From: a virus | Lineage: Duplodnaviria > Heunggongvirae > Uroviricota > Caudoviricetes | Virus record (IMG/VR): IMGVR_UViG_2713896798_000008 | Strand: one strand, 5' to 3' | Length of the DNA stretch: 64,000 bases | Shown: one piece after another, positions 47,483 to 49,461 of the stretch | Numbering within the stretch: position 1 is the first letter of the stretch | How the letters are laid out: each line of letters opens with the position of its first letter | Position numbers and translations under genes: made by a program | The notes under the pieces: model-generated | The model's input: the letters and a program-made list of their open reading frames with translations, nothing else | Databases searched by the model: none | Told to the model about the DNA's origin: nothing

Positions 47483-47790
47483 TACGCAAGCCTCACAATA
47501 TAGTTAAATGCGATGTTTTTGACGGTGTTTTCCGCGTTACCAGCAGCGTTAACGGTGATGGTATGTCCATGTGAACCAATCGCAACGGAGTGCGTATGAG
47601 CACCAATACCGACAGTATGTGCGTGTGCACCTGCGCTTGCAGCAGTACCCGATACAGAGTGCGTATGAGCGCCTGCAGAAGAAGTGTTAACACTGTATTT
47701 AGAATAATCAGGTGATCCACTTCCCGGAGCACCACTGGAACCACCTGAAACAAATGTCATCGAATGGGTATGTGCACCGGCTGTCCCCAT
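47482..47790 (-). pseudogene. stf: side tail fibre C-terminal fragment
   Basis: His-rich GAHTHS/GAHAHT repeats and ...[11 protein letters not shown] end typical of Stf C-terminus; no N-terminal part. Confidence 0.75.
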
Positions 47791-49124
47791 GCATTTACCG
47801 CCCGGACTGTCAGCCTGTAATTTCCCAGCGCCAGCTGCGTGAAGCGATATGTGGTTTCCGTCGTCCGGGCCGTGCTGACCAACCGCTCACTGCCGTCGTC
47901 CGCTGCCACGGTCAGGCGAAGCATAAAGCTCACCCCCTTCACCACCTTCGGCGTGTCCCAGCGCGCCAGCACCTGGTATTCCCCGCTGTCTGCGGTGACT
48001 TCTGCGGTCAGGTGCTGAACTGCTGGCGGCGTGACACCATTCACCGTGCCGCTCTGGTCACCGTCAAAGTGCGCCCCGTTATCCACGATGGCTTCTTTCT
48101 CCGGTACATGCTGCACGGCAGTGATGGCATACGTACCGTCATCGTTCTCACGGATACTCACACAGCGGAACAGGCGCTGACGCAGCGTCGGCAGCTTCAG
48201 CCCCCACACGCTGTACTCGGCAACGCCGTCAGGAACCCGGCTCACTTTCACCTTCACGCCGTCGGTGACGGACTGGACCTCCACGCTCACCGGATTACCC
48301 TGCCCGTCAACCAGGCTTATCAGCGTGGTGCCGGAGGATGGCAGCGTGATTTCACGGTCGAGCGTCAGTGTCCGCGTCTGGCTGTTCACCGCCAGCACGC
48401 GCCCGCCGATGCTGATCCCCGCATAGTCATCATCACAGATTTCAATGACATCACCTGGTACATGGCGAAGCCCTTCGGCACCCACGCTGAAGTCCACGGT
48501 CTGCGTTTCCAGCAGTTCCGTTTTAATCAGCCACAGCCCGGCTCGGTGCGCCTGCCCCCGCCTGGTACAGCCAAAGGCATCCATCTTCGTGACGTTACGA
48601 CCGTAACGGGCAATGGCCTGCGTGTCCTCCACAAGCTCTGTCGCCGTCTCCCAGCCGTTATCCGGGTCAATCCAGTTCACCTCAACGGCATTATGGCGGT
48701 CCTTCAGGGCGCTGAAGCTGTAGCGGAACGGCGCGCCATCATCCGGCATCACCACATTACTGCGGTTATAGGTCCACACCTTATCTGATGGTCGGTCCTG
48801 CACGAACGTCAGCGTCTGCCCGTTCCATACCGGCATACAGCGCATCGCCGAGCAGAAATCACTGAGAACATCCCACGCCTTACGCTGTGTGGTCAGCCAG
48901 GCATTACAGGTGATGCGCGGCTCCGTGCCGCCAAAACCGTCCGGCACCGACTGGTCGCAACACTGGCCGATGACATACAGCGCCCATTTATCCACATCTG
49001 CCGCACCAAGACGTTTACCCATGCCGTAGCGCGGGTGGCTGGAGATCTGTCTCGCTGGCCTGCCGCAGTTCTTCAACTTCCCGGCGCAGCTTTTCGTTCT
49101 CAATTTCAGCATCCCTTTCGGCAT
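47757..49124 (-). pseudogene. J: internal fragment of lambda-type J gene, fused at both ends by deletions
   Basis: Matches lambda gpJ from about [20 protein letters not shown] to [13 protein letters not shown] homology spans about 47880-49040. Confidence 0.8.
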
Positions 49125-49272
49125 ACCATTTTATGACGGCGGCAGAATCATAAAGCACCTCATTACCCTTGCCACCGCCTCGCAGAACGGGCATTCCCTG
49201 TTCCTGCCAGTTCTGAATGGTACGGATACTCGCACCGAAAATGTCAGCCAGCTGCTTTTTGTTGACTTCCAT
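49015..49272 (-). pseudogene. nohQ: terminase small subunit Nu1 N-terminal fragment (noh-type remnant)
   Basis: MEVNKKQLADIFGASIRTIQNWQEQGMPVLRGGGKGNEVLYDSAAVIKWYAERDAEIENEKLRREVEELRQASE matches lambda Nu1, then truncated. Confidence 0.85.
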
Positions 49273-49449
49273 TGTTCATTCCACGGACAAAAACAGAGAA
49301 AGGAAACGACAAAGGCCAAAAAGCCCGCTTTCAGCACCTGTCGTTTCCTTTCTTTTCAGGGGGTATTTTAAATAAAAACATTAAGTTACGACGAAGAAGA
49401 ACGGAAACACCTTAAACCGGAAAATTTTCATAAATAGCGAAAACCCGCG

Positions 49450-49461
49450 AGGTCGCCGCCC
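49450..49461. other. lambda-type cos site (cosN 12-nt cohesive-end sequence)
   Basis: aggtcgccgccc is the reverse complement of GGGCGGCGACCT; flanks match lambda left and right ends. Confidence 0.7.

Follow-up and report, generated by a model that had tools for sequence, protein, structure and literature searches.

A deletion allele of the cryptic prophage Qin that retains a lambda-type cos site

Among the cryptic lambdoid prophages of Escherichia coli, Qin is known to vary in size from 11 to 97 kb over 189 strains, with superintegration of other phages (PMC6379469). In K-12 MG1655 it reads pinQ-tfaQ-stfQ-nohA-cos-ynfO (b1545-b1548); J is missing there, and a single junction connects lambda 1-719, comprising all of nohA and 9 nt of A, with the 3'-terminal ~320 codons of stf. 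The cos-nohD region of DLP12, likewise a defective lambdoid prophage of K-12, also combines a lambda-like cos with a Nu1 homolog. Infecting lambda undergoes recombination with DLP12, for which breaks at cos act as a stimulus; lambda gains markers of the Qin stf/tfa region at ~2x10^-6 and those of the DLP12 cos region ~100-fold more often, aided by such breaks (PMC3945230). Phage-inducible elements of the PICI type that bear a cos site (e.g. EcCICFT073) are chromosomal as well and need the terminase of a helper phage (PMC6739421, PMC9026076). In lambda itself, cosQ has a role in the termination of packaging, and cosB is made up of R3, an IHF site, an inverted R2 and R1 (PMC4669245).

Here we have analyzed a stretch of 64,000 nt of E. 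coli prophage DNA (hereafter the window), in which the initial annotation had recognized a Qin-like remnant with an intact lambda cos. Both the flanking genes and the alignment with lambda bear this out, and the locus is Qin itself, not merely Qin-like. According to the RefSeq annotation of genomes that are 100% identical over the region, one flank carries ynfT, ydfK, pinQ and tfaQ, and the other carries ynfO, ydfO, gnsB, cspI, rzpQ, rrrQ, essQ/essD, cspB, cspF, ydfT, relBE and hokD; the marker genes are thus found on both sides, at the ydfJ-side locus. These flanks are 97.7% (pinQ, tfaQ and the 3' end of stf) and 99.3% (5' end of Nu1, cos, ynfO and ydfO) identical to the Qin of K-12. The nohA-stfQ junction of the K-12 type is absent from the window, whose junctions are different ones; this does not count against membership, because the prophage is the same and only the deletion allele differs. 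We put at roughly 90% the probability that the region is the left arm of Qin at a far advanced stage of deletional decay. Its features are as follows.

46219-46809, plus strand: pinQ, serine recombinase, marker of the Qin left end (RefSeq in identical genomes; 97.7% versus K-12)
46907-47482, minus strand: tfaQ, intact tail fiber assembly gene (Pfam Caudo_TAP; RefSeq; 93.8% versus lambda tfa)
47482-47783, minus strand: stf', last 100 codons plus stop, 302 nt (98.96% versus the SCU-104 stf 3' end)
47780-47783: junction 2 (J/stf), 4-nt microhomology CAGC (three-way alignment with the J and stf of SCU-104 Qin)
47780-49038, minus strand: J', internal fragment of the tail-tip gene, residues ~282-701 (407/420 residues as in lambda J)
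49036-49038: junction 1 (Nu1/J), 3-nt microhomology CCA (three-way alignment of window, lambda Nu1 and J)
49036-49272, minus strand: Nu1', codons 1-79 of the small terminase subunit (78/79 residues as in lambda Nu1)
49297-49413, minus strand: cosB, with R3, IHF region, R2 and R1 in lambda order and orientation
49297-49312, minus strand: cosB R1 (C151T versus lambda, the first base of R1)
49338-49353, minus strand: cosB R2, inverted, unchanged versus lambda
49398-49413, minus strand: cosB R3 (C53T versus lambda)
49450-49461, minus strand: cosN 12-nt cohesive-end sequence GGGCGGCGACCT, aligned to lambda 1-12
49485-49491, minus strand: cosQ heptamer GGGTCCT, an exact match inside the lambda-identical stretch -120 to -1
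49462-49894, plus strand: lambda right-end homology (49462-49823, matching lambda 48142-48502), on through ynfO
49661-49894, plus strand: ynfO coding sequence (Pfam DUF3950; RefSeq annotation)

When compared by BLAST with phage lambda (NC_001416), the region resolves into lambda-collinear blocks, all on the minus strand, in the order lambda right end, cosQ, cosN, cosB, Nu1 codons 1-79, J residues ~282-701, the last 100 codons of stf, tfaQ and pinQ. Window 49823 to 49462 corresponds to the lambda right end at 48142-48502; 49461 to 49036 corresponds to lambda 1-427 with 98.1% identity and covers the cohesive end, cosB and the Nu1 codons; 49038 to 47777 corresponds to lambda 16347-17608 (92.6%; the J residues); and 47631 to 46917 corresponds to lambda 21824-22538 (93.8%; the C-terminus of stf together with tfa). 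Two intervals are missing, one of 15.9 kb (lambda 428-16346) and one between J and stf (~17609-21670) that measures ~4.1 kb on the lambda map or 4.9 kb on that of SCU-104, a total loss of ~20-21 kb of head and tail genes. These collinear blocks and the Pfam matches confirm that a 5' piece of Nu1 is joined to the middle of J and the middle of J to the tail of stf, as had been proposed, together with the proposed loss of about 20 kb and a remainder of stf of about 100 codons (302 nt, i.e. 100 codons and a stop, by comparison with SCU-104).

At junction 1, lambda position 427 is joined to lambda position 16347: Nu1 sequence ending in CTCCAGCCA meets J sequence reading CCA/CCGCGCTACGG, with CCA as the overlap. 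At junction 2, J sequence ending in TGGGGACAGC meets stf sequence beginning with CAGCCGGTGCACATACC, with CAGC as the overlap; full-length stf genes match from 47783 and the homology to J stops at 47777-47780. The first junction had been placed at 49040, in agreement with this position, whereas the second, placed at 47880, was 100 nt off. Overlaps of only 3-4 nt are the signature of illegitimate, microhomology-mediated deletion rather than of homologous exchange. Since neither junction preserves a reading frame, Nu1, J and stf are fused at the level of DNA only: the fusions of the initial annotation exist as sequence but not as proteins, the Nu1 frame stopping 6 codons past junction 1 and the frames of J and stf being different.

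Nu1', J' and stf' are three dead gene fragments beside an intact lambda-type packaging site. A full-length Nu1 comprises an N-terminal winged helix-turn-helix, an oligomerization region and, at the C-terminus, a domain for large-subunit binding; here 79 Nu1 codons are followed by 6 unrelated ones, the open frame running past junction 1, adding PALRHG and stopping at 49015. The fragment matches positions 1-81 of the 164 in the Pfam profile Phage_Nu1 (PF07471) and spans the winged helix-turn-helix DNA-binding domain (PDB 1J9I residues 1-68). The J' frame runs for 420 codons without an internal stop and without a start codon of its own, the sole ATG upstream of it (49124) lying inside Nu1 and out of frame; a chimeric ORF of 455 codons extends from this ATG to 47757. 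It is 98.4% identical to the J of phage mEp460 and contains only Phage-tail_3 and the first Ig_J domain, a part of what a tail-tip J comprises from its N-terminal FNIII to its C-terminal receptor-binding domain; the intact J of the neighboring prophage shows the full set, with six J-specific domains among eight Pfam hits. The stf/tfaQ/pinQ block begins at window 47783 and is 98.96% identical to that of SCU-104. Its stf' part carries the Pfam Phage_fibre repeat in a frame different from that of J', and it lacks the N-terminal attachment domain and the long shaft that precede the C-terminal tip of Stf homologs of ~790-1035 residues. Since all three are fragments, none of them counts as a functional Nu1, J or Stf. 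Independently, the PGAP annotation in RefSeq labels all three as pseudogenes: a terminase small subunit without C-terminus, a host specificity protein J without N- and C-termini and a tail fiber protein without N-terminus. This is ordinary prophage decay, already on record in public annotation, and the significance of the finding goes little beyond bookkeeping. That J' has no stop in 420 codons and that Nu1' differs from lambda by one residue fit a recent deletion and are also compatible with selection. We suggest that none of the three is expressed and that the remnant persists as DNA only, with Nu1' ending 6 codons past junction 1, J' startless and out of frame with both neighbors and stf' deprived of its N-terminus.

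The cos site has every sequence feature of a lambda-type cos, namely cosN, cosQ and the complex cosB. Lambda positions -120 to +52 are identical in the window, which upholds the claim of an intact cosN at 49450-49461 between lambda-like ends. From +53 to +200 there are five differences (C53T, A73G, T102C, a 1-nt deletion of 137, and C151T). All five are also present in PhiR70_1 (PV340577), a phage on deposit as a complete genome (host, E. coli C), and so resemble natural variation among functional cos sites of the lambda type; the cosB of K-12 Qin has a partly different set. Judged by its sequence, the Qin cos should still be cut by a lambda-specificity terminase supplied by another phage. Its retention is explained by its position just outside the deleted interval. 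The 12-mer GGGCGGCGACCT has its sole perfect copy in the 64,000-nt window at 49450-49461; a second lambda cosN was sought throughout the window, with none found at 0-1 mismatches and 2-mismatch matches at chance level. With no second cos at a suitable distance, the island would not be a packageable unit. The literature that we covered contained nothing of use about qin phages of lambda or about the cos of Qin.

Other Qin alleles at the same locus indicate how this structure may have arisen. The near-complete Qin of strain N12 contains cos, Nu1, A, W, B, C, D, E, FI, FII, Z, U, V, G, T, H, M, L, K, I, J, lom and stf, and that of SCU-104 runs from H through J and lom to a 1035-residue stf, tfaQ and pinQ. 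Strain 300709, a patchwork left by five deletions, has junction 2 as in the window, flanks at least 99.9% identical to it, and five lambda patches (1-703, 2177-3501, 5294-5626, 9780-10687 and 15668-17608). In FDAARGOS_1337, whose flanks are also at least 99.9% identical to the window, lambda 1-699 is joined to lambda 16135-17608, followed by the same junction 2; the window allele would be derivable from this form by the loss of only 477 bp. In strain LR-72, tfaQ comes immediately after Nu1 and most of A, which seem to be joined to the tail of stf. Taken together, these alleles suggest an ancestral Qin with a complete lambda-type head and tail region (cos-Nu1-A-...-J-lom-stf-tfa-pin), which would have been lost through successive illegitimate, microhomology-mediated deletions. 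The two deletions invoked in the initial annotation are thus correct as the net outcome but not as the history, since 300709 and FDAARGOS_1337 show intermediate forms; judging from these sequences, a nested deletion series is the likelier course of events.

One might instead suppose that J' is an insertion, brought into a Nu1-stf junction of the K-12 type when an infecting phage similar to mEp460 recombined with it. The fragment is indeed only ~94% identical to the J of the N12 and SCU-104 Qin prophages, as against the 98.4% shared with mEp460, and DNA exchange between Qin and phages of the lambda type is on record (PMC3945230). Nevertheless, we regard such an insertion as highly unlikely. The K-12 Nu1 extends to lambda 719 and is joined to ~320 codons of stf, whereas the window keeps Nu1 only to 427 and 100 codons of stf; with both pieces shorter than those of K-12, the window allele is not K-12 plus an insertion. 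Moreover, the same J allele (99.9-100% identity) is present in 300709 and FDAARGOS_1337, where it extends further upstream in lambda order along with additional patches, exactly as deletion from a collinear genome predicts, and the 3-4 nt shared at the junctions are not what homologous exchange leaves behind. The closeness of J' to mEp460 rather than to other Qin J genes points to a tail region that is mosaic between lineages, with recombination having acted as well as deletion. On the reading of progressive deletion, Qin would be a family of nested deletion alleles, each keeping at least the 5' end of Nu1, and a small but clean illustration of how microhomology-mediated deletions erode a prophage step by step; it also cautions against taking the K-12 nohA-stfQ arrangement as "the" Qin structure.

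The structural part of the initial annotation thus holds, but its functional speculations appear weak. The suggestion that the remnant could supply a packaging site would apply solely to a terminase of lambda specificity; the window encodes no such enzyme, Nu1 being cut at codon 79 and gene A being absent. A prophage of ~45 kb lies upstream (window 1 to about 45000), and we considered whether it might use the Qin cos. Its terminase consists of a DUF1441 small subunit, not of the Nu1 family, and a GpA-type large subunit (Pfam), and it has its own cosQ (22891-22897) and the cosN-like sequence GGGCGGGTCGGC at 22855-22866, within a site spanning 22855-22897. It is the small subunit and cosB that confer packaging specificity: although lambda and phage 21 have cosQ and cosN in common, either of them packages DNA of its own kind >1000-fold better than DNA of the other (PMC4669245). 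With a DUF1441 subunit and a cos of its own, the upstream prophage would hardly initiate packaging at the Qin cos. The site could be cut by a superinfecting phage of lambda specificity. Lambda packaging takes up DNA toward the Nu1 side, which here means toward lower window coordinates. The next cosQ/cosN-like site in packaging orientation is that of the neighboring prophage, only 26.6 kb away; an efficient terminal cut needs a longer distance, so that at best defective particles with one cohesive end would result. The other suggestion, recombination with the complete tail module upstream, is unlikely too: J' and the upstream J are only 74% identical, their longest stretch of exact match measures 47 nt, and the stf/tfa part gives no match to the upstream prophage. 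Because J' and the upstream J are direct repeats, such an exchange would delete ~42 kb. The route that is documented is exchange with infecting lambda-like phages (PMC3945230). A chromosomal lambda cos may offer an entry point both to cutting by terminase and to exchange with such phages, a process already documented for the cryptic prophages of K-12.

Could the remnant nevertheless have been retained for a purpose, as a domesticated module in which Nu1' (85 residues), cos or both interfere with lambda-type phages, be it by decoy binding at cosB, by titration of terminase or through cleavage of the chromosome at cos by that enzyme? The winged helix-turn-helix domain is whole, 78 of the 79 Nu1 residues retained are those of lambda and the frame is open; every decay variant examined has at least Nu1 1-79, and cos is uninterrupted in all of them except 300709. 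The endpoints of Nu1, however, vary by allele (lambda 427, 699, 703, 719 and full length), so that there is no conserved boundary; the carriers are almost identical in sequence, which makes their intact frames uninformative on selection; and in strain 300709 an IS66-family element (ISCro1) interrupts cosB. We therefore find domestication very improbable. Expression of the lambda Nu1 gene depends on late read-through transcription. We would give equally little credence to the broader notion that cos and the DNA-binding domain of Nu1' are not inert when a lambda-specificity phage infects, acting either as a decoy that lowers phage production or as a start point for packaging at 49450-49461. In the first case, Nu1' would occupy cosB, or the chromosomal cos would titrate terminase or be cut, and phage yield would fall; in the second, packaging from 49450-49461 toward lower coordinates would give particles with one cohesive end that contain pinQ, ydfK and neighboring prophage DNA.

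The recurrence of the structure in other genomes bears both on its age and on its reality. The full 2.3-kb architecture is found as one piece with 99.9-100% identity in 24 complete genomes, which come from humans, pigs, cattle, birds, a civet, vegetables and seawater and from unrelated projects and countries. An initial count of 69 genomes mixed true window-type alleles with patchwork ones and was replaced by counts from junction-specific 100-nt probes. By these probes junction 1 is spanned in 26 genomes, one of which (FDAARGOS_1337) is a two-piece join and not a true carrier, leaving ~25, and junction 2 is spanned in 91 complete E. coli genomes. All the junction-1 genomes listed by the search for the 2.3-kb architecture also have junction 2, and the higher count of junction 2 (91 versus ~25) fits its being the older event. 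Although a typical E. coli genome holds many paralogs of J, stf and Nu1 (a median of 5 matching places), the kind of repeats that cause mis-assemblies, the possibility that the junctions are mis-joins between repeated prophage sequences, the artefact that would have undone the initial annotation, is practically nil, because the same junctions recur in ~25 and 91 independent complete genomes and the whole architecture in 24 unrelated ones.

How the decayed left arm of Qin in the window relates to described systems can now be specified. It shares with cos-bearing PICIs a chromosomal cos dependent on a foreign terminase but, unlike them, no integrase, replication or redirecting (Rpp) module is associated with the window cos. 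DLP12 differs in having a functional full-length Nu1 homolog (PMC3945230), whereas the window Nu1 is truncated at codon 79. With lambda (NC_001416) the retained blocks share their order and 92.6-98.1% identity, cosQ and cosN being identical and R2 unchanged, while R3 and R1 have one substitution each; lambda 428-16346 and ~17609-21670 are absent, and with them the terminase large subunit. The Qin prophages of N12, SCU-104, 300709, FDAARGOS_1337 and LR-72 occupy the same locus and retain more than the window does. The Qin of K-12 MG1655 likewise lies at the same locus and between the same flanking genes. Its architecture is found in 480 genomes against ~25 for that of the window, where Nu1 ends at lambda 427 and is followed by 1.26 kb of J and 100 codons of stf. 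The two alleles are not interconvertible by deletion alone and thus both derive from a fuller ancestor; K-12 Qin is an independent deletion allele, and both it and the window have kept their lambda-type cos.

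Comparison of the last 100 codons and stop of stf in the Qin remnant (window 47482-47783) with the stf genes of K-12 and strain 2003-3014 shows this tail to be a mosaic: its last ~190 nt are 97-98% identical to K-12 stfQ and to O121-type stf. The 110 nt upstream of this end (window 47669-47783) come from another stf allele, to which many full-length stf genes are 100% identical over this stretch. In the near-complete Qin of strain SCU-104 (locus L014), J carries a partial tandem duplication and is annotated as two pseudogene pieces (L014 3556-8463); the J fragment of the window has two matches there, at 4398-5222 and 5826-7087.

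Insertion sequences of the IS66 family were also observed. In the Qin allele of strain 300709 (locus L016), ISCro1 lies inside cosB (L016 12302-14999), inserted at about lambda positions 138-146, and splits cosN, R3 and R2 off from R1 and Nu1. In the flxA region of the window's own Qin, two such elements are inserted in tandem (59392-63354) and truncate flxA; according to the annotation of the matching genome SCPM-O-B-9504, they are ISEc22-like and ISCro1-like.

Directly adjoining the left end of Qin is a second lambdoid prophage (window 1-45400), apparently complete within the window though with its distal end beyond the window start, which contains a repressor/Cro region and the following features:

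4444-7920, J
20067-22190, large terminase, GpA-type
22187-22663, small terminase subunit, DUF1441
22855-22866, minus strand, cosN-like GGGCGGGTCGGC
22891-22897, minus strand, cosQ heptamer GGGTCCT
43542-44837, integrase

This arrangement looks like a tandem integration at the Qin site; BUCT2930 and K-12 are among the genomes without the second prophage, and there ydfJ adjoins ynfT. The upstream prophage has lambda-like packaging signals of its own (window 22855-22897, minus strand). This site and the Qin cos are oriented alike and lie 26.6 kb apart; the cosN-like sequence matches the lambda cohesive end in the left half only.
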